Shown: positions 1 through 28,696 of the stretch, piece by piece
How positions within the stretch are numbered: position 1 is the stretch's first letter
Layout of the letters: every line of letters begins with the position of its first letter
NCBI RefSeq assembly: GCF_055900595.2
Contig: NZ_CM148325.1
Direction: 5' to 3' (one strand)
Length of the DNA: 64,000 nucleotides
The notes under the pieces: model-generated
Databases searched by the model: none
Told to the model about the DNA's origin: nothing
Seen by the model: only the letters and a program-made list of their open reading frames with translations
Position numbers and translations under genes: made by a program

Positions 1-4
1 AGGA

Positions 5-3000
5 ATGCGCAAATTCACACTAAACATATTCACGCTTTCCCTCGGTCTGGCCGTCATGCCGATGGTCGAGGCAGCACCAACCGCTCAGCAACAGTTGCTG
101 GAGCAAGTTCGGTTAGGCGAAGCGACCCATCGTGAAGATCTGGTGCAACAGTCGTTGTATCGGCTGGAACTTATTGATCCGAATAACCCGGACGTCGTTG
201 CCGCCCGTTTCCGTTCTCTGTTACGTCAGGGCGATATTGATGGCGCGCAAAAACAGCTCGATCGGCTGTCGCAGTTAGCGCCGAGTTCAAATGCGTATAA
301 ATCGTCGCGGACCACAATGTTACTTTCTACGCCGGATGGTCGTCAGGCACTGCAACAGGCAAGATTGCAGGCGACTACCGGTCATGCAGAAGAAGCTGTG
401 GCGAGTTACAACAAGCTGTTCAACGGTGCGCCGCCGGAAGGTGACATTGCCGTCGAGTACTGGAGTACGGTGGCGAAAATTCCGGCTCGCCGTGGCGAAG
501 CGATTAATCAGCTAAAACGCATTAATGCGGATACGCCGGGCAATACGGGCCTGCAAAACAATCTGGCGCTATTGCTGTTTAGTAGCGATCGGCGTGACGA
601 AGGCTTTGCCGTCCTGGAACAGATGGCGAAATCGAACGCCGGACGCGAAGGGGCCTCTAAAATCTGGTACGGGCAGATTAAAGACATGCCCGTCAGCGAT
701 GCCAGTGTGCAGGCGCTGAAAAAATATCTCTCGATCTTTAGCGATGGCGATAGCGTAGCTGCTGCGCAATCGCAACTGGCAGAACAGCAAAAACAGCTGG
801 CCGACCCTGCTTTCCGCGCTCGTGCGCAAGGTTTAGCGGCAGTGGACTCTGGCATGGCGGGTAAAGCCATTCCCGAACTACAACAGGCAGTGCGGGCGAA
901 CCCGAAAGACAGTGAGGCTCTGGGGGCGCTGGGCCAGGCGTATTCTCAGAAAGGCGATCGCGCCAATGCGGTGGCGAATCTGGAAAAATCCCTCGCACTG
1001 GACCCGCACAGCAGCAACAACGACAAATGGAACAGTCTGCTGAAAGTAAACCGCTACTGGCTGGCGATCCAGCAGGGTGATGCCGCGCTGAAAGCCAATA
1101 ATCCTGACCGGGCAGAACGCCTGTTCCAGCAGGCGCGCAGTGTCGATAACACCGACAGCTATGCGGTGTTGGGGCTGGGCGATGTGGCGATGGCGCGAAA
1201 AGATTATTCCGCCGCCGAACGTTATTATCAGCAGACCTTGCGTATGGACAGCGGCAACACTAACGCCGTGCGCGGGCTGGCGAATATTTACCGCCAGCAA
1301 TCGCCAGAAAAAGCAGAAGCGTTTATCGCCTCGCTCTCTGCCAGCCAGCGGCGCAGCATTGATGATATCGAACGTAGCCTGCAAAACGATCGTCTGGCAC
1401 AGCAGGCAGAGGCACTGGAAAACCAGGGCAAATGGGCGCAGGCAGCAGCACTTCAGCGGCAACGACTGGCACTGGACCCCGGCAGTGTATGGATTACTTA
1501 CCGACTTTCGCAGGATCTCTGGCAGGCCGGACAACGCAGCCAGGCCGATACGTTAATGCGCAATCTCGCGCAGCAGAAGCCGAACGACCCGGAGCAGGTT
1601 TACGCTTACGGGCTGTACCTCTCAGGTCACGACCAGGACAGAGCGGCACTGGCGCATATCAACAGCCTGCCGCGCACGCAGTGGAACAGCAATATTCAGG
1701 AGTTGGTTAATCGCCTGCAAAGCGATCAGGTGCTGGAAACCGCTAATCGCCTGCGAGAAAACGGCAAAGAGGCAGAAGCGGAAGCGATGCTGCGCCAGCA
1801 ACCGCCTTCCTCGCGTATTGATCTGACGCTGGCTGACTGGGCGCAACAACGACGTGATTACACCGCCGCCCGCACTGCATATCAGAATGTCCTGACGCGG
1901 GAGCCAACTAACGCCGATGCCATTCTTGGTCTGACGGAAGTGGATATTGCTGCCGGTGACAAAGCGGCGGCACGTAGCCAGCTGGCGAAACTGCCTGCTA
2001 CCGATAACGCCTCTCTGAACACACAGCGGCGCGTGGCGCTGGCGCAGGCGCAGCTTGGCGATACCGCAGCGGCGCAGAAGACGTTTAACAAGCTGATCCC
2101 GCAGGCAAAATCTCAGCCACCGTCGATGGAAAGCGCGATGGTACTGCGCGACGGTGCGAAGTTTGAAGCACAGGCGGGCGATCCAACGCAGGCGCTGGAA
2201 ACCTACAAAGACGCGATGGTTGCATCCGGTGTGACCACGACGCGTCCGCAGGATAACGACACCTTTACCCGGCTGACTCGTAACGACGAGAAAGATGACT
2301 GGCTGAAACGCGGCGTGCGCAGCGATGCGGCAGATCTCTACCGCCAGCAGGATCTTAACGTCACCCTCGAGCACGATTACTGGGGGTCGAGCGGCACCGG
2401 TGGTTACTCCGATCTGAAAGCGCACACTACCATGTTGCAGGTGGATGCGCCGTATTCTGACGGGCGGATGTTCTTTCGCAGTGATTTCGTCAATATGAAC
2501 GTCGGCAGTTTCTCCACGAATGCCGATGGCAAATGGGATGACAACTGGGGCACCTGTACATTACAGGACTGTAGCGGCAACCGCAGCCAGTCGGATTCCG
2601 GTGCCAGCGTGGCGGTCGGCTGGCGAAATGACGTCTGGAGCTGGGATATCGGCACCACGCCGATGGGCTTCAACGTGGTGGATGTGGTCGGCGGCATCAG
2701 TTACAGTGATGATATGGGGCCGCTGGGTTACACCGTTAACGCCCATCGTCGGCCCATTTCCAGTTCTTTGCTGGCCTTTGGCGGGCAAAAAGACTCCCCG
2801 AGCAATACCGGGAAAAAATGGGGTGGCGTGCGTGCCGACGGCGTGGGGCTAAGCCTGAGCTACGATAAAGGTGAAGCAAACGGCGTCTGGGCATCGCTTA
2901 GCGGCGACCAGTTAACCGGTAAAAATGTTGAAGATAACTGGCGCGTGCGCTGGATGACGGGCTATTACTATAAGGTCATCAACCAGAACAATCGCCGCGT

Positions 3001-3478
3001 GACAATCGGCCTGAACAACATGATCTGGCATTACGACAAAGACCTGAGTGGGTACTCACTCGGTCAGGGCGGTTACTACAGCCCGCAGGAATACCTGTCG
3101 TTTGCCATTCCGGTGATGTGGCGTGAACGGACAGAAAACTGGTCGTGGGAGCTGGGGGCGTCTGGTTCGTGGTCGCATTCGCGCACCAAAACCATGCCGC
3201 GGTATCCGCTGATGAATCTGATCCCGACTGACTGGCAGGAAGAAGCTGCGCGGCAATCCAACGATGGCGGCAGCAGTCAGGGCTTTGGCTATACGGCGCG
3301 GGCATTACTTGAGCGTCGCGTCACATCCAACTGGTTTGTCGGTACGGCAATTGATATCCAGCAAGCGAAGGATTACGCGCCCAGCCATTTCCTGCTCTAC
3401 GTACGTTATTCCGCCGCCGGATGGCAGGGTGACATGGATTTACCGCCGCAGCCGCTGATACCTTACGCCGACTGGTAA
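5..3478 (+). CDS. bcsC: Cellulose synthase operon protein BcsC (TPR repeats plus C-terminal outer-membrane beta-barrel), 1157 aa, complete
   Basis: Translation recognised as E. coli BcsC across its length; ATG at 5, TAA at 3476-3478; C-terminal aromatic-rich beta-barrel region. Recalled from memory, no search run. Confidence 0.93.
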   Translation: MRKFTLNIFTLSLGLAVMPMVEAAPTAQQQLLEQVRLGEATHREDLVQQSLYRLELIDPNNPDVVAARFRSLLRQGDIDGAQKQLDRLSQLAPSSNAYKSSRTTMLLSTPDGRQALQQARLQATTGHAEEAVASYNKLFNGAPPEGDIAVEYWSTVAKIPARRGEAINQLKRINADTPGNTGLQNNLALLLFSSDRRDEGFAVLEQMAKSNAGREGASKIWYGQIKDMPVSDASVQALKKYLSIFSDGDSVAAAQSQLAEQQKQLADPAFRARAQGLAAVDSGMAGKAIPELQQAVRANPKDSEALGALGQAYSQKGDRANAVANLEKSLALDPHSSNNDKWNSLLKVNRYWLAIQQGDAALKANNPDRAERLFQQARSVDNTDSYAVLGLGDVAMARKDYSAAERYYQQTLRMDSGNTNAVRGLANIYRQQSPEKAEAFIASLSASQRRSIDDIERSLQNDRLAQQAEALENQGKWAQAAALQRQRLALDPGSVWITYRLSQDLWQAGQRSQADTLMRNLAQQKPNDPEQVYAYGLYLSGHDQDRAALAHINSLPRTQWNSNIQELVNRLQSDQVLETANRLRENGKEAEAEAMLRQQPPSSRIDLTLADWAQQRRDYTAARTAYQNVLTREPTNADAILGLTEVDIAAGDKAAARSQLAKLPATDNASLNTQRRVALAQAQLGDTAAAQKTFNKLIPQAKSQPPSMESAMVLRDGAKFEAQAGDPTQALETYKDAMVASGVTTTRPQDNDTFTRLTRNDEKDDWLKRGVRSDAADLYRQQDLNVTLEHDYWGSSGTGGYSDLKAHTTMLQVDAPYSDGRMFFRSDFVNMNVGSFSTNADGKWDDNWGTCTLQDCSGNRSQSDSGASVAVGWRNDVWSWDIGTTPMGFNVVDVVGGISYSDDMGPLGYTVNAHRRPISSSLLAFGGQKDSPSNTGKKWGGVRADGVGLSLSYDKGEANGVWASLSGDQLTGKNVEDNWRVRWMTGYYYKVINQNNRRVTIGLNNMIWHYDKDLSGYSLGQGGYYSPQEYLSFAIPVMWRERTENWSWELGASGSWSHSRTKTMPRYPLMNLIPTDWQEEAARQSNDGGSSQGFGYTARALLERRVTSNWFVGTAIDIQQAKDYAPSHFLLYVRYSAAGWQGDMDLPPQPLIPYADW

Positions 3479-3559
3479 GTTTTCAGATAGCGCCTCTCTT
3501 AATGCCGCTGCGATCGGGTATACTCGGGCGGCAATCTGGGATTTCCGGGGGGAGACAAT

Positions 3560-5548
3560 TTGCGCGTAAGTCGCTCGTTAACAATCAAGCAGATGGCAAT
3601 GGTGGCAGCCGTTGTCCTGGTGTTCGTTTTTATTTTTTGCACCGTTTTGCTGTTCCATCTGGTCCAGCAGAATCGCTATAACACGGCTACGCAACTGGAA
3701 AGCATTGCTCGCTCTGTCCGCGAACCCTTATCTTCTGCCATTTTGAAAGGCGATATTCCCGAAGCGGAAGCTATTCTTGCCAGCATTAAACCGGCAGGCG
3801 TGGTCAGCCGTGCCGATGTGGTGCTGCCTAACCAGTTCCAGGCGCTGCGTAAAAGTTTTATTCCAGAGCGTCCGGTGCCGGTAATGGTTACTCGCATGTT
3901 TGAGCTACCGGTGCAAATCTCGCTGGGCGTTTACTCGCTGGAACGTCCGGCAAACCCGCAGCCAATTGCCTATCTGGTGCTACAGGCGGATTCCTTCCGC
4001 ATGTATAAGTTCGTGATGAGCACCCTCTCGACGTTAGTGACCATTTACTTACTTTTGTCGTTAATATTGACGGTGGCGATTAGCTGGTGCATTAACCGCC
4101 TGATTTTGCATCCGTTACGCAATATTGCTCGTGAACTTAACGCCATCCCAGCCCAGGAGCTTGTTGGTCACCAACTGGCATTACCACGTCTGCATCAGGA
4201 CGATGAAATCGGTATGCTGGTGCGCAGTTACAACCTCAACCAGCAATTGCTGCAGCGCCATTATGAAGAACAGAACGAAAATGCGATGCGCTTCCCGGTG
4301 TCGGATTTGCCGAACAAAGCCTTGCTGATGGAGATGCTGGAGCAGGTTGTCGCGCGTAAACAAACCACCGCGCTGATGATTATCACCTGTGAAACCCTGC
4401 GTGATACTGCGGGCGTGCTGAAAGAGGCGCAACGAGAAATTCTGCTGCTGACGCTGGTGGAAAAACTCAAATCGGTACTGTCGCCACGTATGATCCTCGC
4501 GCAGATTAGTGGTTATGACTTTGCTGTCATTGCCAACGGTGTACAGGAGCCGTGGCATGCTATTACTTTAGGTCAGCAAGTGCTCACTATCATGAGCGAG
4601 CGCCTGCCGATTGAACGTATTCAACTCCGTCCGCACTGTAGCATTGGCGTGGCGATGTTCTACGGCGATCTCACCGCCGAACAGCTTTACAGTCGCGCTA
4701 TTTCTGCGGCATTTACCGCTCGCCATAAAGGTAAGAATCAGATTCAGTTCTTTGATCCGCAGCAGATGGAAGCCGCCCAACAGCGGTTGACGGAAGAGAG
4801 CGATATCCTTAATGCACTGGAAAATCATCAGTTTGCGATTTGGTTACAGCCACAGGTCGAGATGACCAGCGGTAAACTGGTCAGTGCGGAAGTGTTACTG
4901 CGTATCCAGCAACCGGATGGCAGTTGGGATCTGCCGGATGGCTTAATCGATCGCATTGAGTGCTGTGGGCTGATGGTTACCGTCGGTCACTGGGTGCTGG
5001 AAGAGTCCTGTCGACTGCTGGCTGCCTGGCAAGAGCGCGGCATTATGTTGCCCTTGTCGGTAAACCTCTCAGCGCTGCAACTGATGCACCCGAATATGGT
5101 GGCGGATATGCTGGAGCTGTTAACCCGCTATCGCATTCAGCCGGGAACGCTGATTCTGGAAGTGACAGAAAGCCGACGTATTGACGACCCTCATGCAGCG
5201 GTGGCAATCCTCCGTCCGTTGCGTAATGCCGGCGTTCGGGTGGCGCTGGATGATTTCGGCATGGGCTACGCAGGGCTGCGTCAGCTGCAGCATATGAAAT
5301 CGTTGCCAATCGACGTGTTAAAAATCGACAAAATGTTTGTTGAAGGCTTGCCGGAAGATAGCAGCATGATTGCTGCAATTATCATGTTGGCGCAAAGCCT
5401 GAACTTACAAATGATTGCCGAAGGCGTGGAGACTGAAGCACAACGCGACTGGCTGGCAAAAGCGGGCGTTGGTATTGCCCAGGGCTTCCTTTTTGCTCGC
5501 CCACTCCCTATTGAAATCTTCGAAGAGAGTTACCTGGAAGAAAAGTAG
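3560..5548 (+). CDS. pdeK: c-di-GMP phosphodiesterase PdeK (YhjK); membrane-anchored, HAMP-like linker, degenerate GGDEF and EAL domains
   Basis: Translation matches YhjK; EAL-domain motifs near the C-terminus. TTG at 3560 is preceded by a GGGGAG Shine-Dalgarno about 5 nt upstream; in-frame ATGs at 3593 and 3599 are alternatives, so the start is uncertain. Confidence 0.85.
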
Positions 5549-5694
5549 CTACCCCAAACTGATTACAAAACTTTAAAAAGTGCTGGTTTGTGCGAGCCAG
5601 CTCAAACTTTTTAACCTTTTTGTTTCAATTATGATCCAGGTACATTTCTGTGATGTTGTCTGGGTGTTATTTTAAGGCCGCAGGTACCCCATAA

Positions 5695-7017
<1,323 letters not shown>

Positions 7018-7031
7018 TCTCACCACTTATG

Positions 7032-7064
7032 CCCGCACTCCCTTCCCCGAGTGCGGGTGTTTGC
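7032..7064 (+). terminator. Rho-independent terminator candidate downstream of dctA
   Basis: GC-rich inverted repeat CCCGCACTC...GAGTGCGGG followed by TGTTTG; a second hairpin CCTGAACT...AGTTCAGG plus TTTATTT follows at about 7083-7119. Confidence 0.6.
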
Positions 7065-7236
7065 GCATAATTGACCCCTGTGCCTGAACTTACCACCTGG
7101 GTGAGTTCAGGTTTATTTCACTTCTTCCGTGACATTTTCATGTTCTTGCGGTCTAACACGAAGTGTTTTTAATGTCATTTAGACTGACCGACAACGGGCA
7201 GTTTTTTATTACCAGGATAGTTGATCAGGGGTTCAC

Positions 7237-8733
7237 ATGCAGGGCACAAAAATTCGACTTTTAGCGGGCGGTTTGCTGATGATGGCCACTGCTGGCTATG
7301 TGCAGGCAGATGCGCTCCAGCCTGATCCAGCATGGCAACAGGGGACGCTTTCCAACGGTTTACAGTGGCAAGTGCTGACCACGCCCCAGCGTCCCAGCGA
7401 TCGTGTTGAAATTCGCCTGCTGGTTAATACCGGTTCGCTCGCCGAAAGTACACAACAGAGCGGTTACAGCCACGCCATCCCTCGTATTGCGTTAACGCAA
7501 AGCGGTGGCCTTGACGCAGCACAGGCGCGTTCATTGTGGCAGCAGGGGATCGACCCTAAACGCCCGATGCCGCCGGTAATTGTCTCTTATGACACCACGC
7601 TGTTTAATCTGAGTTTGCCCAATAACCGTAACGACTTGCTGAAAGAAGCGCTCTCTTATCTGGCAAATGCCACTGGCAAACTGACTATCACGCCAGAAAC
7701 CATCAACCACGCGTTGCAAAGTCAGGACATGGTGGCAACCTGGCCTGCCGATACTAAAGAGGGCTGGTGGCGCTATCGTCTGAAAGGATCAACCTTGTTA
7801 GGTCACGATCCTGCCGATCCGCTGAAACAACCCGTTGAAGCGGAAAAGATTAAAGATTTCTATCAGAAATGGTACACCCCGGATGCAATGACGCTGCTGG
7901 TGGTGGGAAACGTGGATGCGCGCTCGGTTGTCGACCAAATCAACAAAACGTTTGGCGAACTGAAAGGCAAACGTGAAACACCGGCCCCGGTGCCGACGCT
8001 TTCTCCGCTGCGTCCTGAAGCGGTGAGTATTATGACCGATGCGGTACGTCAGGACCGGTTATCTATCATGTGGGATACGCCGTGGCAGCCAATTCGTGAA
8101 TCAGCCGCACTGCTGCGCTACTGGCGTGCGGACCTGGCCCGTGAGGCGCTGTTCTGGCACGTTCAGCAAGCGTTAAGCACCAGTAACAGCAAAGACATCG
8201 GTCTTGGATTTGACTGCCGTGTGCTGTATCTGCGTGCGCAGTGTGCCATCAACATCGAGTCACCAAACGACAAGCTGAACAGCAACCTTAATTTGGTAGC
8301 GCGTGAGCTGGCAAAGGTTCGCGATAAAGGTCTGCCGGAAGAAGAGTTCAATGCGTTAGTGGCGCAAAAGAAACTGGAGCTGCAGAAACTGTTTGCCGCC
8401 TATGCGCGAGCTGATACCGATATTTTGATGGGGCAGCGGATGCGTTCGTTGCAAAATCAGGTCGTTGATATCGCGCCGGAGCAATATCAGAAACTGCGGC
8501 AGGATTTCCTTAATAGTCTGACGGTAGAGATGTTAAATCAGGATCTGCGCCAGCAGTTGTCGAACGATATGGCGTTAATTCTTCTGCAGCCGAAAGGCGA
8601 GCCAGAATTTAACATGAAAGCGTTGCAGGCGGCCTGGGATCAAATCATGGCCCCATCTACTACTGCTGCCACAACCTCTGTTGCCACGGATGACGTACAT
8701 CCTGAAGTGACGGATATTCCACCCGCACAGTAA
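7237..8733 (+). CDS. yhjJ: Putative periplasmic zinc-dependent peptidase YhjJ (M16 family), 498 aa
   Basis: Translation recognised as YhjJ; N-terminal signal-peptide-like segment. Confidence 0.9.
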   Translation: MQGTKIRLLAGGLLMMATAGYVQADALQPDPAWQQGTLSNGLQWQVLTTPQRPSDRVEIRLLVNTGSLAESTQQSGYSHAIPRIALTQSGGLDAAQARSLWQQGIDPKRPMPPVIVSYDTTLFNLSLPNNRNDLLKEALSYLANATGKLTITPETINHALQSQDMVATWPADTKEGWWRYRLKGSTLLGHDPADPLKQPVEAEKIKDFYQKWYTPDAMTLLVVGNVDARSVVDQINKTFGELKGKRETPAPVPTLSPLRPEAVSIMTDAVRQDRLSIMWDTPWQPIRESAALLRYWRADLAREALFWHVQQALSTSNSKDIGLGFDCRVLYLRAQCAINIESPNDKLNSNLNLVARELAKVRDKGLPEEEFNALVAQKKLELQKLFAAYARADTDILMGQRMRSLQNQVVDIAPEQYQKLRQDFLNSLTVEMLNQDLRQQLSNDMALILLQPKGEPEFNMKALQAAWDQIMAPSTTAATTSVATDDVHPEVTDIPPAQ

Positions 8734-8828
8734 TGCCTGATGGTGATGAGTTAGCACAACCATCAGGTATTTATGGATGAGCTGGATAGAGGGGTAACAC
8801 TTTATCCAGCCTTTTGCATATGCTGCTT

Positions 8829-9758
8829 TTACGCCGGCATCGCCTCACGCGGGATAATCGCGCCGCGATACTGAATAACGGTACTTGCGGTCAGGTGCCC
8901 GCGTTTCGCCGCATTTTCCGCACTGCCGCCCGTCAAACGTACCGCCAGATAACCGGCACTGAAAGAGTCGCCAGCTGCGGTGGTATCGATCACTTTTTCT
9001 TTCGGCAGTTTCACCGCCGGAACATCCACTAACCCTTCGCCAGCAATGGACACCAGGCAAGAATCCGCCCCGCGTTTCACCACCACTTCTTTCACGCCCG
9101 CGTTATGGGTGCGCGCAATGACGTCTTCCACCGGCTGTTGACCCCACAGCGCGTCTTCATCGTCCAGCGTCAGGAAGGCGATATCCGTGCATTCCAGCAT
9201 TTGCTGGTACACCTGCTGTGTCTCTTCTTTGCTGGCCCACAGGCGCGGACGATAGTTATTGTCGAAAATTACTTTTCCGCCGTTGGCGCGGCATTCGCGC
9301 AGCAGGGAAAGCAGCTTTTCGCGGCTGGTCGGGCTTAAGATCGCCAGGCTAATCCCGCTCAGGTAGAGATAATCGAAACTCGCCAGCTCTTCGCAAATCG
9401 CCGCGGATTGCTCACTCTCCAGCCAGAATTTGGCGGCGGCTTCGTTACGCCAGTAGTAGAACGTACGTTCGCCGGTGCTGTCGGTTTCAATGTAGTAAAG
9501 GCCCGGCAGACGGTTTTCCATCCGTTGGGTCAGGGAAGTATCAACGTTCTCGCCGTGCCAGGCGTCCAGCATCTGCTGGCTAAAACTGTCCGTTCCCAGC
9601 GCCGTTACGTAATGAACGGTTAATGCCGCAGGATCGACCTGACGGGCGATATAGACGGAAGTGTTCAGGGTATCGCCGCCGAAACCGCGCTTAACGTCCG
9701 CGCCTTTCTCGGAAAGCTCAATCATGCATTCGCCAATCACGGCAATCTTTTTGGACAT
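8829..9758 (-). CDS. kdgK: 2-dehydro-3-deoxygluconokinase KdgK, 309 aa
   Basis: Translation from MSKKIAVIGECMIELSEKGADVKRGFGGDTLNT recognised as KdgK (PfkB sugar kinase family). The six-frame ORF runs 116 codons further upstream; start trimmed to the conserved Met using the ORF-track frame. Confidence 0.9.
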   Translation of the reverse strand: MSKKIAVIGECMIELSEKGADVKRGFGGDTLNTSVYIARQVDPAALTVHYVTALGTDSFSQQMLDAWHGENVDTSLTQRMENRLPGLYYIETDSTGERTFYYWRNEAAAKFWLESEQSAAICEELASFDYLYLSGISLAILSPTSREKLLSLLRECRANGGKVIFDNNYRPRLWASKEETQQVYQQMLECTDIAFLTLDDEDALWGQQPVEDVIARTHNAGVKEVVVKRGADSCLVSIAGEGLVDVPAVKLPKEKVIDTTAAGDSFSAGYLAVRLTGGSAENAAKRGHLTASTVIQYRGAIIPREAMPA

Positions 9759-9824
9759 AGTCGTGAACCTGATCTGTAAAAAATTAGCGTTAGTTTGCGC
9801 TGTGGTGGTTTGCTGGTCAACCAT

Positions 9825-9843
9825 ATTAAAACAGTGTTCCATT
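9825..9843. promoter_or_regulatory. Candidate KdgR operator in the kdgK-pdeH divergent intergenic region
   Basis: ATTAAAACAGTGTTCCATT resembles the KdgR palindromic consensus (AAATGAAACA-N-TGTTTCATTT) as I recall it; kdgK is a KdgR regulon member. Inference from motif similarity only. Confidence 0.4.
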
Positions 9844-9914
9844 ATTTTTTTGAGCCAGAACGTATTCCTGAAAGATTCCGTTGTGGCGTGGGGAAATTTA
9901 CCCCGGCCAGGCGG

Positions 9915-9941
9915 TAAAGTTCTGCCTTTGCGCGCCGATAA
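9915..9941 (+). promoter_or_regulatory. Sigma-28 (FliA) class 3 flagellar promoter upstream of pdeH
   Basis: TAAAGTTC, 11-nt spacer, GCCGATAA is a near-perfect match to the FliA consensus TAAAGTTT-N11-GCCGATAA, about 50 bp upstream of the pdeH ATG. Confidence 0.7.
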
Positions 9942-9989
9942 TCTTTGTCGAGTCCGGGCAGCATCACTTTTAAACACAGGACATCTTTG

Positions 9990-10757
9990 ATGATAAGGCA
10001 GGTTATCCAGCGAATAAGCAACCCTGAAGCAAGCATCGAGAGCTTGCAGGAACGGCGTTTTTGGTTGCAGTGTGAGCGTGCTTACACCTGGCAGCCGATC
10101 TATCAAACCTGCGGACGGTTAATGGCCGTGGAGCTATTAACGGTGGTCACGCATCCCTTGAACCCTTCGCAACGCCTGCCACCGGATCGCTATTTTACTG
10201 AAATCACCGTCAGCCATCGGATGGAGGTTGTGAAAGAGCAGATTGATTTGCTGGCGCAAAAAGCCGACTTCTTTGTAGAGCACGACCTGCTGGCATCGGT
10301 CAATATTGATGGTCCTACGCTCATCGCCCTGCGTCAGCAACCAAAAATCCTGCGCCAGATTGAGCGTCTTCCCTGGCTGCGTTTCGAACTGGTGGAACAC
10401 ATCCGTCTGCCGAAAGATTCAACCTTTGCCTCGATGTGTGAATTTGGCCCGCTGTGGCTGGATGATTTTGGCACCGGGATGGCAAATTTCTCTGCGCTAA
10501 GTGAAGTGCGTTATGACTACATCAAAATCGCGCGAGAACTGTTTGTGATGCTGCGTCAGTCACCGGAAGGACGCACACTCTTTTCTCAGCTTTTACATCT
10601 CATGAATCGCTATTGTCGCGGGGTGATTGTTGAGGGCGTAGAAACGCCGGAAGAGTGGCGTGATGTTCAGAACTCGCCCGCATTCGCCGCACAAGGCTGG
10701 TTTCTTTCACGCCCGGCACCGATAGAAACGCTGAATTCGGCAGTTCTGGCGCTATAA
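9990..10757 (+). CDS. pdeH: c-di-GMP phosphodiesterase PdeH (YhjH), EAL domain, 255 aa
   Basis: Translation from MIRQVIQRISNPEASIESLQERRFWLQCERAY recognised as YhjH; the six-frame ORF starts 15 codons upstream. Confidence 0.93.
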   Translation: MIRQVIQRISNPEASIESLQERRFWLQCERAYTWQPIYQTCGRLMAVELLTVVTHPLNPSQRLPPDRYFTEITVSHRMEVVKEQIDLLAQKADFFVEHDLLASVNIDGPTLIALRQQPKILRQIERLPWLRFELVEHIRLPKDSTFASMCEFGPLWLDDFGTGMANFSALSEVRYDYIKIARELFVMLRQSPEGRTLFSQLLHLMNRYCRGVIVEGVETPEEWRDVQNSPAFAAQGWFLSRPAPIETLNSAVLAL

Positions 10758-10827
10758 GCTGCCTCATTTTCTGCCTGGCTGGACTATCTTTAGGACTGGC
10801 ACAGGAAGAAATATGAGGAAGCGAATG

Positions 10828-12888
10828 ATGAGCAAGGCAGGCAAAATAACCGCTGCGATTTCAGGGACTTTCTTGTTGTTGATTGTCGTGGCGATCATTT
10901 TGATTGCAACATTTGACTGGAATCGACTCAAACCGACCATCAACCAGAAAGTCTCTGCGGAGTTGAATCGTCCATTCGCTATCCGTGGCGATCTGGGCGT
11001 GGTGTGGGAGCGGCAAAAACAAGAAACCGGCTGGCGCAGCTGGGTGCCGTGGCCTCATGTGCATGCAGAAGACATCATTCTTGGCAATCCGCCGGATATT
11101 CCCGAAGTCACAATGGTGCATTTGCCACGCGTAGAGGCAACACTGGCCCCGCTGGCGTTGCTGACCAAAACGGTCTGGCTGCCGTGGATAAAACTGGAGA
11201 AGCCCGACGCGCGTCTGATTCGTCTCTCTGAAAAGAACAATAACTGGACCTTTAATCTCGCCAATGATGACAACAAAGACATGAATGCAAAGCCGTCGGC
11301 GTGGTCGTTTCGACTGGATAATATTCTGTTCGATCAAGGGCGGATCGCTATTGATGACAAAGTAAGCAAAGCGGATCTGGAAATTTTTGTCGATCCGTTA
11401 GGCAAGCCGCTGCCGTTCAGTGAAGTTACCGGATCGAAAGGTAAAGCGGACAAAGAAAAGGTGGGCGATTACGTTTTTGGTCTGAAGGCGCAGGGACGTT
11501 ATAACGGTGAACCGCTCACGGGCAAAGGTAAAATCGGCGGTATGCTGGCACTACGCGGCGAAGGTACACCGTTTCCGGTACAGGCTGATTTCCGCTCCGG
11601 GAATACTCGCGTCGCTTTTGATGGCGTCGTGAATGACCCAATGAAGATGGGCGGTGTCGATTTACGGCTTAAATTTTCTGGCGATTCGCTGGGTGATCTC
11701 TATGAACTGACGGGCGTTCTGCTGCCCGATACCCCGCCGTTTGAAACCGATGGTCGGCTGGTCGCGAAAATCGACACTGAAAAATCGTCGGTATTTGATT
11801 ATCGAGGCTTTAATGGGCGCATTGGCGATAGTGATATCCACGGTTCTCTGATCTACACCACCGGCAAGCCACGGCCAAAACTGGAAGGTGATGTCGAATC
11901 GCGGCAATTGCGGCTGGCAGATTTAGGGCCATTGATTGGCGTTGATTCTGGAAAAGGTGCAGAAAAGTCGAAACGGTCTGAGCAGAAGAAAGGCGAAAAA
12001 AGCGTTCAGCCTGCGGGCAAAGTGCTGCCTTATGACCGCTTCGAAACCGAAAAATGGGACGTCATGGATGCCGATGTCCGCTTCAAAGGTCGGCGCATTG
12101 AACATTGTAGTAGCTTGCCGATTAGCGATCTTTCTACTCATATCATCCTCAAAAATGCTGACCTGCGCCTGCAACCGCTGAAATTTGGCATGGCAGGCGG
12201 CAGCATTGCGGCGAATATTCATCTGGAAGGTGATAAAAAACCGATGCAGGGGCGGGCAGATATTCAGGCTCGTCGGCTGAAACTGAAAGAACTGATGCCG
12301 GATGTGGAGCTGATGCAGAAGACGCTGGGGGAAATGAACGGTGACGCGGAACTACGCGGTAGCGGTAACTCGGTGGCGGCGCTTTTAGGCAACAGTAACG
12401 GCAACCTGAAACTGTTGATGAATGACGGGCTGGTGAGCCGCAACCTGATGGAGATTGTCGGCCTGAATGTTGGTAACTACATTGTCGGTGCGATATTTGG
12501 TGACGATGAGGTGCGGGTGAACTGCGCGGCAGCGAATCTGGATATTGCCAACGGTGTGGCGCGTCCGCAGATTTTTGCTTTTGATACTGAGAATGCGTTG
12601 ATCAATGTTACCGGCACGGCAAGTTTTGCTTCGGAACAGCTGGATTTAACTATCGATCCAGAAAGTAAAGGGATTCGGATTATCACACTGCGTTCGCCGC
12701 TGTATGTGCGTGGGACATTTAAAAATCCGCAGGCTGGGGTAAAAGCCGGACCGTTGATTGCTCGCGGAGCCGTCGCGGCGGCACTGGCAACGCTGGTAAC
12801 ACCGGCGGCGGCGTTACTGGCGCTGATCTCTCCTTCCGAAGGGGAGGCTAATCAGTGTCGGACGATTTTGTCGCAGATGAAGAAGTGA
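10828..12888 (+). CDS. yhjG: AsmA-family inner-membrane-anchored protein YhjG, about 686 aa
   Basis: Translation recognised as YhjG (N-terminal TM anchor, long periplasmic AsmA-like region). Start is ambiguous among ATGs at 10813, 10825 and 10828; 10828 has a GAGGA Shine-Dalgarno at good spacing. Confidence 0.88.
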   Translation: MSKAGKITAAISGTFLLLIVVAIILIATFDWNRLKPTINQKVSAELNRPFAIRGDLGVVWERQKQETGWRSWVPWPHVHAEDIILGNPPDIPEVTMVHLPRVEATLAPLALLTKTVWLPWIKLEKPDARLIRLSEKNNNWTFNLANDDNKDMNAKPSAWSFRLDNILFDQGRIAIDDKVSKADLEIFVDPLGKPLPFSEVTGSKGKADKEKVGDYVFGLKAQGRYNGEPLTGKGKIGGMLALRGEGTPFPVQADFRSGNTRVAFDGVVNDPMKMGGVDLRLKFSGDSLGDLYELTGVLLPDTPPFETDGRLVAKIDTEKSSVFDYRGFNGRIGDSDIHGSLIYTTGKPRPKLEGDVESRQLRLADLGPLIGVDSGKGAEKSKRSEQKKGEKSVQPAGKVLPYDRFETEKWDVMDADVRFKGRRIEHCSSLPISDLSTHIILKNADLRLQPLKFGMAGGSIAANIHLEGDKKPMQGRADIQARRLKLKELMPDVELMQKTLGEMNGDAELRGSGNSVAALLGNSNGNLKLLMNDGLVSRNLMEIVGLNVGNYIVGAIFGDDEVRVNCAAANLDIANGVARPQIFAFDTENALINVTGTASFASEQLDLTIDPESKGIRIITLRSPLYVRGTFKNPQAGVKAGPLIARGAVAAALATLVTPAAALLALISPSEGEANQCRTILSQMKK

Positions 12889-23299: not shown

Positions 23300-24124
23300 A
23301 TGCAATCACTACATGGTAATTGTCTAATTGCGTACGCAAGACATAAATATATTCTCACCATGGTTAATGGTGAATATCGCTATTTTAATGGCGGTGAACT
23401 GGTTTTTGCGGATGCAAGTCAAATTCAAGTGGATAAGTGTGTCGAGAATTTTGTATTAGTTTCAAGGGACACGCTTTCATTATTTCTCCCGATGCTCAAG
23501 GAGGAGGCATTAAATCTTCATGCACATAAAAAAGTTCCTTCGTTACTCGTTCATCACTGTACCAGAGATATTCCTGTTTTTCAGGAGGTTGCGCAACTAT
23601 CGCAGAATAAGAATCTGCGCTATGCAGAAATGCTCCGTAAAAGAGCATTAATCTTTGCGTTGTTATCTGTTTTCCTGGAGGACGAGCAGTTTATACCGCT
23701 GCTTCTGAACGTTTTGCAACCGAACATGCGAACACGAGTTTGTACGGTCATCAATAATAATATCGCCCATGAGTGGACATTAGCCCAAATCGCCAGCGAG
23801 CTGTTGATGAGTTCAAGCCTGTTAAAGAAAAAATTGCGCGAAGAAGGTACGTCATATTCACAGTTGCTTACTGAGTGTAGAATGCAACGTGCTTTGCAAC
23901 TTATTGTTATACATGGTTTTTCAATTAAGCGAGTTGCAGTGTCCTGTGGTTATCACAGCGTGTCGTATTTCATTTACGTTTTTCGAAATTATTATGGGAT
24001 GACGCCCACAGAGTATCAGGAGCGATCGGCACAAGGATTGCCGAACCGTGACTCGGCGGCAAGTATTGTTGCGCAAGGGAATTTTTACGGTACTAACTAT
24101 TCTGCGGAAGAAATAAGATTATAG
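23300..24124 (+). CDS. gadX: AraC-family acid-resistance regulator GadX, 274 aa
   Basis: Translation recognised as GadX. Confidence 0.95.
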   Translation: MQSLHGNCLIAYARHKYILTMVNGEYRYFNGGELVFADASQIQVDKCVENFVLVSRDTLSLFLPMLKEEALNLHAHKKVPSLLVHHCTRDIPVFQEVAQLSQNKNLRYAEMLRKRALIFALLSVFLEDEQFIPLLLNVLQPNMRTRVCTVINNNIAHEWTLAQIASELLMSSSLLKKKLREEGTSYSQLLTECRMQRALQLIVIHGFSIKRVAVSCGYHSVSYFIYVFRNYYGMTPTEYQERSAQGLPNRDSAASIVAQGNFYGTNYSAEEIRL

Positions 24125-25220: not shown

Positions 25221-25582
25221 CATATTTCGCATTTGAATATTGGTCAGGATCTCACACGTGCTTCATGTGAAACTCTTCCCTGATGATTTCTGCCGGGCTA
25301 CCGGCTAGTTCTCTTTCGCAGTATGCCATGCGGTATAGGTATTTTCAGGAGGAAAAGACTCGGCATGTTTGGGATTATTAAGCTGACAATTCATACGATT
25401 ACGGGAATGTGGGTCAGTATTGTGCTGTTCAAATTGATGACGAATGGCTGGAGTGGTTTTTACTTTCAGTGCTGTGTACTAAGCCTGGTATTCCTGACGG
25501 TTAGCTGGTTGTTGAGTGGTGAATGGTTAGCAGGAAAGAGTAAGGCTGAACCCTCACGTTCAACCTTACTCTCATTTACACG

Positions 25583-28500
25583 TTACGCTTTTTTAAAGCG
25601 GGCAAAGAGATGTTCCACTACAACGAAAAAGACTGGAACGAAGTAAATGGCCAGCACTGTTGCGGCAAACATCCCGCCCATCACGCCGGTACCTACCGCG
25701 TTTTGCGCGCCAGAACCTGCGCCGTGGCTGATTACCAGCGGCAACACGCCGAGAATAAAGGCCAGAGAGGTCATCAGGATTGGGCGTAAACGCATCCGCG
25801 CCGCTTCGATGATTGCCTCTATCGGCGTTTTCCCTTCTTTCTGCATCATCTCAACGGCAAATTCGACGATCAGGATGGCGTTCTTGGCGGAAAGCCCGAT
25901 GGTAGTCAGCAAACCAACCTGGAAGTAGACGTCATTACTTAAGCCGCGCAGATCGGTGGCCAGTAATGCGCCAACGACACCTAACGGTACAACCAACATC
26001 ACCGAGAACGGAATTGACCAGCTCTCATAAAGTGCGGCAAGGGCGAGGAACACCACGACCAGTGAAATGGCATACAGCGCGGGAGCCTGGTTTGAGGATA
26101 ACGCTTCCTGATACGACAGTCCGGTCCACGAGTAGCCGACGCCTGCCGGAAGTTTAGCGACCAGGTCTGCCATAAATTTCATAGCGTCACCGGTACTTTT
26201 CCCGGCCGCCGCTTCACCTAAAATCTCCATTGACGGGATGCCGTTGTAGCGTTCCAGTCGCGGTGAACCATAGGTCCATTCGGTAGACGAATAGGCCGAA
26301 AGCGGTGCCATCGTGCCAGAGGCGTTGCGTACATACCACTGGTTGATGTTATCCGGCAACATACGGAACGGCGTGCCTGCCTGGACATACACTTTTTTCA
26401 CCCGCCCCTGGTTGAGGAAGTCGTTCACGTAGCTGCTGCCGAAGGCGGTGGAAATTGTCTGGTTGATATCAGACAGCGTCACACCCATTGCCTCGGCTTT
26501 CGCGGCGTTGACGTTCACTTTGAACATCGGCGTATCTTCCAGTCCGTTCGGGCGTACCCCGGTGACCTGATTCGGTGATTGCGCTGCCAGTGATAATAGC
26601 TCGTTTCGCGCCTGGGTCAGTTTTTCGTGCCCTAAGTTGCCGTTGTCCAGCAGTTCCATATCAAAACCTGACGCGGTACCCAGTTCAGCCACCGCGGGTA
26701 AGTTGAACGGGAAGACGACGGCTTTATTGATACTGCTTAACGCAATCATTGCCCGCTGAATGATCGCGGTAACCGAGTTTTCCTCACCGACACGTTCAGA
26801 CCACGGTTTGAGGCTGATAAACGCCAGACCGTTGTTTTGCCCCTGGCCACTGAAGCCAAAGCCGCCAACGGTAAACACCGACTGAACATTATCTTTCTCT
26901 TTTGTCAGATAATAATCAGTCACCTGTTGCAGCACTTTCGTGGTGTTAACCATGGTTGCACCGGAAGGTAACTGCGCGGTGGTCATAAATACCCCCTGAT
27001 CCTCTTCTGGTAAGAAAGAGGTCGGCGTACGCAGGAACAGCACTGCCATCCCGGCGCAAATCAGCAGGTAGACCACCATGTAGCGACCGGTACAACGCAA
27101 CAGCGAGCGGGTGCTATCGGTATAGTGATGAGTCGATTTTTCAAACAGCGTGTTGAAGCGTGCGAACAGGGCGTTAGGTTTGTGACCGCCTTCCGGCGCG
27201 GCTTTCAGAATGGTGGCGCACAGGGCAGGGGTCAGGCTCATTGCGACAAATACTGAAAGCAGCATCGAGGAGATCAGCGTGATGGAGAACTGACGATAAA
27301 TTTCCCCGGTCGCGCCGCTCATAAAGGCCATTGGCATAAACACCGCGGAAAGCACAACGGCAATCCCGACCAGAGCGCGTTGGATTTGCCCCATGGATTT
27401 ATGCGTTGCTTCCTTCGGCGGCAGTTTATCCTCCGCTATCACGCGCTCGACGTTTTCTACCACCACGATGGCGTCATCCACCAACAACCCTATCGCCAGC
27501 ACCATCCCGAACATGGTGAGGGTGTTGATGGTGAAACCGACCGCCGACAAGATCGCAAACGTCCCGAGAATAACCACCGGTACGGCAATCGTCGGGATGA
27601 TTGTGGCACGGAAATTCTGCAAAAACAGATACATGACCAGGAAGACGAGGATGATAGCCTCAACCAGTGTTTTGAAAACTTCCTGAATAGAAATTTCGAT
27701 AAACGGCGTCGTGTCGTAAGGATAAACCGTCTTCAGACTTGCGGGGAAATAGGCTGATAGGCGGTTTAGCTCCTCTTTGACTGCCCGTGAGGTATCCAGG
27801 GCATTTGCTCCGGTAGCCAGTTTGATGGCGATCCCGGCAGCAGGTTTGCCGTTATAGCGCGCCACGGTGGAATAATCTTCCGCCCCAAGTTCGACGCGGG
27901 CGACATCACGCAGCAGCACTTGCGAGCCATCTTGCTGAACTTTCAACAGGATTTTGCCAAATTCTTCCGGCGTTTGCAGACGCGTCTGCACAATGATCGA
28001 GGCGTTCAGTTGCTGGTCTGCCGCCTGTGGCATGCCACCCAGTTGACCACCAGAAATCTGGTTGTTTTGCACCTTAATCTGGGAAATAACATCGGAAGGT
28101 ACCAGGTTGTATTTATTGAGTTTTTGCGGGTCCAGCCAGATACGCATGGCATACTCGGAACCAAAGAGTTGTACGCTACCAACGCCCGCGGTACGGCTTA
28201 GCGGGTCTTTGATATTAGACGCTACATAGTCCGCGATATCGTACTGGTTGAGACTGCCGTTATCAGAAATGAACGCCGCTACCATCAGGATATTACTGCT
28301 CGACTTATCGACGCTAATCCCCTGCTGCTGCACCGCTTCAGGTAATGAAGGCATAGCGAGTTGCAGTTTATTTTGCACCTGAACCTGCGCGATATCAGGC
28401 GATGTCCCCGTCTCAAAGGTCAGAGTGATGGAGGCATTACCCGCCGCATCGCTGGTTGAAGACATGTACATCAGGCCATCAAGCCCATTCATATTTTGCT

Positions 28501-28696
28501 CAATCACCTGAGTGACCGAGTCTTCTACCGTTTGCGCATCGGCACCCGGATAGGTTGCGCTGACGGTAATGGTTGGTGGCGCAATCTGCGGATATTGCGC
28601 AACCGGTAAGTTCATGATCGCCAGACCACCTGCAAGCATCATAATAATGGCAAGTACCCAGGCAAAAACCGGGCGATCAATAAAATAGTTAGCCAT
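25583..28696 (-). CDS. mdtF: RND multidrug efflux pump inner-membrane subunit MdtF, 1037 aa
   Basis: Translation recognised as MdtF (AcrB paralogue). Confidence 0.95.

Follow-up and report, generated by a model that had tools for sequence, protein, structure and literature searches.

We analysed a stretch of 64,000 nucleotides (contig NZ_CM148325.1 of NCBI RefSeq assembly GCF_055900595.2; hereafter referred to as the window), which carries the acid fitness island of Escherichia coli and in which the genes gadW and mdtF converge on a spacer of 362 bp, reaching from the end of gadW (25220) to the stop codon of mdtF (25583-25585). A plus-strand open reading frame (ORF) lies in this spacer and ends within mdtF at position 25646. 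It encodes 107 residues when read from an ATG at 25323 and 93 residues when read from an in-frame ATG at 25365. The shorter form is a conserved, translated and acid-induced ORF with two hydrophobic helices, and it very probably represents a genuine gene for an acid-induced protein with two transmembrane (TM) segments; the gene is probably co-transcribed with gadW. An initial annotation, made from the sequence alone, had put the ORF forward, with a low prior, as the possible gene of a small membrane protein with two helices and with ATG 25365 as its start, and this proposal is now supported by conservation and by published ribosome profiling (Ribo-seq). The features on which it had been based were all recovered: both readings, 107 and 93 codons, are present in the list of ORFs, two hydrophobic stretches appear in Kyte-Doolittle windows, the motif AGGAGG precedes ATG 25365 with a gap of 12 nt, and the ORF shares 64 nt, in antisense orientation, with the end of mdtF.

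Identity with sORF15 and induction at low pH

Schumacher et al. (2023; mSystems 8:e01037-23, PMC10746267) have published the 93-codon ORF as candidate sORF15, and the gene is thus not an undiscovered one. Table S7 of that study provides the coordinates NC_000913.3:3663464-3663745(-) and the upstream sequence AGGAAAAGACTCGGC (PMC10746267). These coordinates fall into the mdtF/gadW spacer of strain K-12, and the K-12 DNA can be aligned base for base with positions 25365-25646 of the window. The K-12 protein, which starts with MFGIIKLTIHTITGMWV and ends with KKTGTK, is identical to the protein encoded in the window at 92 of 93 residues, residue 65 being Cys in K-12 and Arg in the window.

Ribosome occupancy, which the initial annotation had put forward as a check, is evident from the published data. 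When pH 4.4 was compared with pH 7.6, Ribo-seq footprints on sORF15 increased with a log2 fold change (log2FC) of +4.21 (~18-fold, padj 1e-38) and the RNA with a log2FC of +4.03 (PMC10746267, Table S8), and translation efficiency was unchanged between the two conditions (PMC10746267). Footprints on GadW increased as well, with a log2FC of +3.03 (PMC10746267). In the same study, a sORF15:3xFLAG product encoded on plasmid pBAD24 was visible by Western blotting following induction with arabinose for 1 h, and DeepTMHMM predicted two TM helices, while ColabFold gave a hint at a third, C-terminal helix (PMC10746267).

The literature on sORF15 yielded nothing beyond the 2023 study and its preprint. 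The initial annotation had named no annotated gene at this place. In RefSeq, no feature is annotated between mdtF and gadW in K-12 MG1655, and annotation of the spacer is likewise absent in 40 of 40 genomes, which were sampled evenly from 5,415 matching E. coli RefSeq records. In GenBank and UniProt the protein is labelled “hypothetical” or “uncharacterized protein” only (e.g. A0A0D6GAG9_ECOLX), also under Shigella flexneri and S. boydii, and the R65 and C65 alleles share one 90% cluster with 703 members. The gene is already published and still missing from the RefSeq annotations checked. What is added here is the evolutionary evidence, the correct start, the restriction to Escherichia/Shigella, an orthologue of the core in E. 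fergusonii and a terminator-like hairpin embedded in the gene.

Conservation and substitution pattern in Escherichia

Ten sequences were compared, namely the window, K-12, six loci obtained by scanning GTDB, and the loci of E. marmotae and Escherichia sp. E2593, both of which were added by look-ups of the exact protein. The GTDB scan addressed one genome per species in 100,044 species and required exact matches to two peptide patterns, so that very divergent copies may escape it. All six loci detected belong to Escherichia, i.e. to E. coli, Escherichia sp. MOD1-EC7003, E. whittamii, E. albertii, a lineage labelled E. coli E69 and Escherichia sp. E1V33. The ORF is located between the gadW orthologue and mdtF in all loci with a readable flank, and it comprises exactly 93 codons in nine of the ten Escherichia sequences (the window and eight others), in which the ATG and AGGAGG are also kept. 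The sequence TTTTCAGGAGGAAAA at the Shine-Dalgarno motif does not vary among the Escherichia species compared; divergence and indels set in further upstream. The p-distance is 0.08 for the stretch from the Shine-Dalgarno motif to the ATG versus 0.22 for the rest of the spacer. Codons 1-72 of the ORF are also less divergent (p-distance 0.146) than the spacer between the gadW stop codon and the Shine-Dalgarno motif (0.22), and none of their 216 alignment columns contains a gap, as opposed to 14 of 122 columns in the spacer.

Selection statistics were determined for codons 1-72, i.e. outside the overlap with mdtF, using the method of Nei and Gojobori (NG86). The ratio of the proportions of non-synonymous and synonymous differences (pN/pS) is 0.19 in the true frame versus 0.27-2.2 in the other five frames. 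The median pairwise ratio of non-synonymous to synonymous substitution rates (dN/dS) is 0.12, compared to 0.68-2.1 in other frames and 0.21 in the antisense frame that shares the wobble position. Across the ten sequences the true frame contains no stop codon, while 30-76 stop codons are present in each of the other five. An opposite-strand gene was considered as the source of the codon-position pattern and rejected, since the wobble-sharing antisense frame carries 30 stops in these sequences. As a control, gadW (242 codons) exhibits a median dN/dS of 0.09 and a pN/pS of 0.18, and for mdtF the dN/dS is 0.01-0.02.

Other measures provided the same picture. Variable sites are distributed 23/14/43 over the three codon positions (p = 2.6e-4). 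Fitch parsimony on a tree based on mdtF assigned 78 synonymous and 48 non-synonymous changes to the true frame, i.e. 38% non-synonymous versus 78% expected under neutrality (binomial p = 3e-22), while 72-74% are non-synonymous in the other frames. Within E. coli, 7 synonymous and 3 non-synonymous polymorphisms are found outside the overlap (34 metagenomic copies, 14 haplotypes; p = 0.0015). Equal frequencies of synonymous and non-synonymous changes had been named by the initial annotation as speaking against a gene; the synonymous excess found here (dN/dS 0.12 with the above parsimony p-value) is the opposite outcome. As synonymous changes greatly outnumber non-synonymous ones, the frame is maintained for its protein. 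Judged from these substitutions, the ORF is under purifying selection of a strength similar to that acting on gadW.

The length of the ORF on its own is weak evidence. An ATG-initiated ORF of at least 93 codons occurred in 1.9% of simulated sequences (426 nt, first-order Markov model, same composition, six frames), T-rich DNA favours hydrophobic codons, and the neighbouring candidate sORF14, which stems from the same Ribo-seq study, is not conserved. One could thus regard sORF15 as a chance ORF in a 3' untranslated region (3' UTR), which is subject to pervasive, functionless translation. We consider this hardly credible. Proof beyond chance is provided by conservation together with the published Ribo-seq data: none of the eight other loci whose tail can be read departs from 93 codons, the Shine-Dalgarno motif and the ATG are invariant, dN/dS is at ~0.12 on a par with gadW, parsimony rejects neutrality at the level given above, and the E. 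fergusonii homologue described below is under purifying selection as well. In effect, the substitution pattern refutes a chance origin.

The alignments also indicate that the gene is the 93-codon form. The 107-codon alternative offered by the initial annotation was abandoned, as its ATG at 25323 is a rare allele and has no Shine-Dalgarno motif ahead. This codon is TTG in K-12, and in 42 metagenomic copies it was found to be TTG (37 copies), TCG (2 copies) or ATG (1 copy). Moreover, the 42 nt between 25323 and 25365 evolve like the remaining spacer, i.e. like non-coding DNA, the Shine-Dalgarno motif excepted.

Upstream of these positions, the spacer contains two further elements (Table 1). The frame of sORF14 is open for 6 to 122 codons across Escherichia, with its TAG stop changed to AAG and with indels shifting the frame, and its GTG start is GTA in two lineages. 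Despite its Ribo-seq signal, sORF14 is probably not a functional conserved coding gene. The short GC hairpin at 25292-25305 looks like a weak terminator; it is poorly conserved and carries substitutions, and in one locus (L003) an 11-nt deletion takes away part of the 3' arm and the tail. A structured element in the spacer that masks the Shine-Dalgarno motif was considered and dismissed, the z-score of the fold being only -1.37.

Table 1. Features of the gadW/mdtF region, in positions of the window.
Feature	Position	Strand	Basis
gadX	23300-24124	+	ORF list; RefSeq match
GadY, full-length Rfam match, 150 bits	24135-24248	-	Rfam
gadW coding sequence, 242 aa	24492-25220	+	Listed ORF; match annotated as gadW in RefSeq genomes; K-12 gene order agrees
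sORF14, published candidate, GTG start, 13 aa	25267-25308	+	Table S7 of PMC10746267
Short GC hairpin GCCGG-GCTA-CCGGC with T-rich tail	25292-25305	+	Consensus scan
Strain-specific in-frame ATG (107-codon reading), not the conserved start	25323-25325	+	TTG in K-12
Shine-Dalgarno motif AGGAGG	25347-25352	+	Read from the sequence; 12 nt before ATG 25365
Coding sequence of the small membrane protein (published sORF15), 93 aa, stop codon included	25365-25646	+	ORF list, conservation, literature
Predicted TM helix 1, residues ~4-22	25374-25430	+	Hydropathy; AF2 helix 2-26; two TM helices by DeepTMHMM (PMC10746267)
Turn motif NGWSGFYFQCC, residues 27-37	25443-25475	+	Most conserved part; columns invariant save Q35H
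Predicted TM helix 2, residues ~31-56	25455-25532	+	Hydropathy up to 1.95; AF2 helix 31-57
Conserved 16-bp hairpin, codons 58-70 of the small gene	25536-25573	both	RNAalifold; inner part flagged by scan
64-nt antisense overlap, small-gene codons 73-93 (basic tail) with the last 21 mdtF codons	25583-25646	both	Coordinates
mdtF, RND efflux permease, 1037 aa, convergent neighbour	25583-28696	-	Listed ORF; RefSeq match

Within E. coli the gene is common yet dispensable, at least in some strains. Intact copies with 93 codons account for 37 of 43 usable metagenomic copies. The remaining copies comprise one with an in-frame deletion of 15 nt, one with a W48* nonsense mutation, and others that are frameshifted or joined to foreign sequence; some of them reside on contigs of ~2x coverage and may be assembly errors. 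The W48* mutation (TGG to TGA at the equivalent of 25508) is located in helix 2 and stems from an otherwise E. coli-like copy on the gut metagenome contig ERZ1031779, at ~6x coverage. In the complete genome of E. coli O121 strain 201805972 (NZ_CP119441.1), an IS66-family element is inserted at about codon 14 (equivalent to ~25405). At this site the genes tnpA, tnpB and tnpC are found, with IS1 beyond them; the gadW side is not continued there, and the record contains a second matching place. Residue 65, at which the window differs from K-12 (R65C, position 25557), lies in the loop of the embedded hairpin. Cys is the minority allele, present in 7 of 34 metagenomic E. coli copies and also in K-12, E. 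coli E69 and Escherichia sp. E1V33, while the window carries the majority allele, Arg.

Protein architecture, mdtF overlap and the E. fergusonii homologue

The encoded protein consists of 93 residues and has a mass of 10.5 kDa and a pI of ~10. Kyte-Doolittle windows of 19 residues exceed 1.6 at residues 4-22 and 31-56, and the AF2 model contains helices at residues 2-26, 31-57 and 65-88. The last 41 residues form a strongly basic tail with a net charge of +9. With two segments long enough to span the bilayer and a positively charged C-terminal tail, the protein is predicted to be a two-TM inner-membrane protein. According to the positive-inside rule, the topology is most likely N-in/C-in, and the turn GWSGF...CC would then be positioned on the periplasmic side, where the protein is exposed to acid. 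Selection is strongest on codons 1-55 encoding the two-helix core (dN/dS 0.10-0.16, dS 0.93), and the conserved working part appears to be this two-helix hairpin.

Small size, two TM helices in N-in/C-in topology and a charged C-terminal tail, here of net charge +9, are also hallmarks of class II holins (e.g. S21) and resemble type I toxins. The protein might therefore be regarded as a membrane-damaging toxin, either holin-like or of type I, in which case the convergent transcript could act as antisense antidote through the overlap with the mdtF mRNA. Several observations render this very improbable. The searches provided no Pfam family at E <= 10, nothing significant in NCBIfam, and in PHROG a best match with a non-significant E-value of 0.09, to a family of unknown function. 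The gene resides in a chromosomal regulatory context without prophage or phage context, unlike holins. Its basic tail is dictated by the mdtF antisense sequence and is not conserved in E. fergusonii, where it is absent, and with 93 residues the protein exceeds the usual size of type I toxins. Finally, expression from the arabinose promoter for 1 h gave a product, and no toxicity was reported (PMC10746267).

In the overlap, the third codon positions of the small gene and mdtF coincide. Here, dN of the small gene is 0 and dN/dS of mdtF is 0.01-0.02. As the constraint on mdtF suffices to explain the absence of non-synonymous changes, the tail gives no independent evidence for the small protein. 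A peculiarity was observed in Escherichia sp. E2593 (PDII01000009.1), which has an extra T in the T-run of the last mdtF codons (equivalent to ~25589-25594). This insertion frameshifts both genes, i.e. mdtF is called with 1043 instead of 1037 aa and the small protein comprises 96 aa with a different tail, although it begins at the same start codon as in the other loci. The extra T may stem from the assembly or may be a genuine variant that affects both genes at once.

Ahead of the overlap, the small gene includes a conserved hairpin of 16 bp (25536-25573), for which RNAalifold calculated -25 kcal/mol from nine Escherichia sequences. Most pairs are invariant, one is compensatory, and variation is concentrated in the loop. 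On the minus strand the hairpin lies ~10 nt past the mdtF stop codon and is followed by CUCUUUCC; its U-tract is weak. These properties suggest that it is likely the terminator of mdtF, which is read through by the small gene. In codons 56-72 a lower dS of 0.32 and a higher dN/dS of 0.30 were determined, the low dS being explained by the hairpin detected with RNAalifold. The plus-strand transcript of gadW/sORF15 forms this hairpin as well, 73 nt ahead of the sORF15 stop codon, and completion of the message past it calls for an explanation.

Among 1.84 billion representative proteins, 19 matches were found in an exhaustive HMMER profile search. With one exception, these are copies of the Escherichia protein, either complete or truncated, frameshifted or chimeric. 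The exception stems from E. fergusonii ATCC 35469 (locus L058, CU928158.2), is 54 aa long and is labelled “hypothetical protein; putative exported protein”. It shares 49% identity over 41 aa (E = 3e-13) and keeps the pattern GIIKL...GWSGF-F-CC. Its ORF starts 19 nt after the stop codon of the gadW orthologue, which itself is 62% identical, and is convergent to mdtF. It stops ahead of a strong GGCCGG-TTTC-CCGGCC hairpin and consequently has no overlap with mdtF. Comparison with E. coli gave a pS of 0.93 (saturated) and a pN of 0.32, resulting in a ratio of 0.35, versus 0.94 and 1.61 in other frames. Because the E. fergusonii orthologue keeps the core but lacks the tail, the ancestral conserved unit is the two-TM hairpin, and in the other Escherichia species the long basic tail seems to have been added later, across the terminator and into the mdtF antisense sequence. 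As to its surroundings, the E. fergusonii island (L058, positions 1-12165) retains hdeD, gadE, mdtE, mdtF and the gadW-like gene. At the place of gadX/gadA, a second AraC-family gene (289 aa) and a histidine-phosphatase-family gene are found, and neither gadX nor gadA is present beside the gadW-like gene. The gadW/mdtF spacer is only 225 bp long, with the strong GC hairpin located between the small ORF and mdtF.

The hairpin and the overlap are also arguments for an alternative, according to which the functional element acts at the RNA level and the protein is incidental. In this case, the long gadW 3' UTR would act in cis via antisense pairing, transcriptional interference or a shared bidirectional terminator, and ribosomes on the ORF would merely stabilise the RNA or counteract termination. 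The 64 nt antisense to mdtF, the conserved 16-bp hairpin within the ORF and the reduced dS in codons 56-72, which reveals constraint at the RNA level, are consistent with this scenario, and processing of antisense RNA already takes place at the locus, as exemplified by GadY. Nonetheless, we regard it as improbable, since selection on the amino acid sequence is strongest exactly in those codons (1-55) that are free of hairpin and gene overlap, since the 216 nt outside the overlap lack indels genus-wide, as opposed to the gapped columns in the spacer, and since the E. fergusonii orthologue keeps the core although it ends before its own terminator hairpin and does not reach mdtF. A role of the RNA could exist alongside the protein, but cannot account for amino-acid selection in codons 1-55.

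Relatives outside Escherichia/Shigella were detected neither in 5.8 billion proteins nor among the 1.84 billion representatives or the 100,044 species-representative genomes, and a second profile search seeded with the E. fergusonii protein found that protein only. Searches of PDB sequence profiles gave a best E-value of 6.4, and Foldseek, using the low-confidence AF2 model as query, found no match in the PDB. Homologues of more than 80% identity have been listed for Vibrio, Klebsiella, Salmonella and Enterococcus (PMC10746267, Fig. S9C). The scan of species representatives does not bear these out, the HMMER search agrees with the scan, and the entries probably are mislabelled or contaminated assemblies. 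The searches thus indicate that the gene is restricted to Escherichia (including Shigella). One candidate for a divergent homologue, P0028 (72% identity, 30 Logan blocks), was rejected, as all of its differences are of the C-to-T type (T to I/M, H to Y, A to V, P to F/L). It occurs on short contigs without the usual neighbours in at least 20 sequencing runs, e.g. Logan SRR1812924 and SRR3359618. Most simply, P0028 is bisulfite-converted E. coli DNA that was assembled as native DNA, and represents a trap for homology searches in Logan.

Expression, possible partners and weight of the evidence

In the transcript, the gene would follow gadW and form the distal part of the gadW (gadXW) message. 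We infer co-transcription with gadW because both RNAs are induced in parallel, because the spacer contains no promoter-like site, because the hairpin at 25292-25305 is weak and unconserved, and because only 19 nt separate the two genes in E. fergusonii. With regard to the promoter, a consensus scan of the plus strand from gadW to ATG 25365 gave no match, which is a weak negative. Translation would start from the gene's own conserved AGGAGG and ATG, and the gene is induced at pH 4.4 along with the Gad/acid-fitness regulon. The two-helix protein might then bind, and thereby tune, a larger membrane protein that takes part in the acid response.

Small proteins acting on larger membrane proteins have precedents: AcrZ binds AcrB, SafA and MgrB bind PhoQ, and MgtS binds MgtA. 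By analogy to these cases, and since the 10-kDa protein consists almost entirely of membrane helix, binding and tuning of a larger membrane protein is a guess at the class of mechanism, which we hold to be somewhat more likely than not. As to the partner, we tentatively place the efflux pump MdtEF-TolC first, a guess that is more likely to fail than to hold. It is ranked first because mdtF is the neighbour at each of the loci, even in E. fergusonii, where gadX and gadA are not adjacent. GadC or a sensor kinase may be less likely partners than MdtEF-TolC, and HdeD and YhiD are also conceivable. Schumacher et al. propose a link of sORF15 to GadC or MdtF (PMC10746267). A more far-reaching, and still more doubtful, proposal would be that this Escherichia-restricted orphan, through its two-helix core, is a new kind of subunit, accessory or regulatory, in a membrane machine of the acid response, for which MdtEF-TolC is the leading candidate and GadC or a sensor kinase are alternatives, and that its C-terminal third arose by overprinting in the E. 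coli lineage. If true, overprinting would create a physical link between expression of the gadW regulator unit and the 3' end of the efflux pump gene.

Two known systems come closest. AcrZ (49 aa), the accessory subunit of AcrB, is likewise a small inner-membrane protein without a soluble domain, and MdtF, the permease of the RND type that would be the partner here, is a paralogue of AcrB encoded next door. The likeness concerns the mode of action only: AcrZ possesses one TM helix as compared to two in sORF15, for which binding to MdtF is a hypothesis. SafA (B1500, 65 aa) is a connector between EvgS/EvgA and PhoQ/PhoP. It shares with sORF15 that it is an acid-induced small membrane protein encoded in an operon with an AraC-family regulator of acid resistance (safA-ydeO and gadW-sORF15, respectively), but it has a single TM helix and is encoded upstream of its regulator, whereas sORF15 is located downstream of gadW. 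BLASTP detected no alignment with either AcrZ or SafA at E <= 100, and the sequence provides no sign of membership in the AcrZ or SafA families. Both are to be taken as mechanistic analogies and would not indicate family membership.

Several points weigh against our interpretation as an acid-induced membrane protein gene. The spacing of 12 nt between the Shine-Dalgarno motif and the ATG exceeds the optimum, and the AF2 model is of low confidence (mean pLDDT 64.6). The hairpin and mdtF both confound the conservation seen in codons 58-93 (dS 0.32 in codons 56-72, dN of 0 in the overlap). About 5 of the 43 metagenomic copies and one O121 genome carry disrupted genes, and the E. fergusonii version, known from one genome only, has a GTG start and no visible Shine-Dalgarno motif. 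Epitope tagging at the native locus, as suggested by the initial annotation, is matched in part by the published work: the 3xFLAG fusion was detected, but it was produced from an arabinose promoter on a plasmid and not from the native locus (PMC10746267).

A gene under purifying selection akin to that on gadW is thus absent from RefSeq K-12 and from the 40 sampled genomes, although it resides in the much-studied acid fitness island. This has consequences for mutants of its neighbours. Since the Keio design keeps only the last 21 nt of a deleted gene, a standard mdtF deletion would remove about the last 14 codons of the small gene, while deletion of gadW or insertion of a cassette therein would alter small-gene transcription. 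Hence, phenotypes assigned to MdtF or GadW may partly stem from the small protein. The practical value of the present analysis lies less in a discovery than in a well-justified target for knockout and for the search of a partner.

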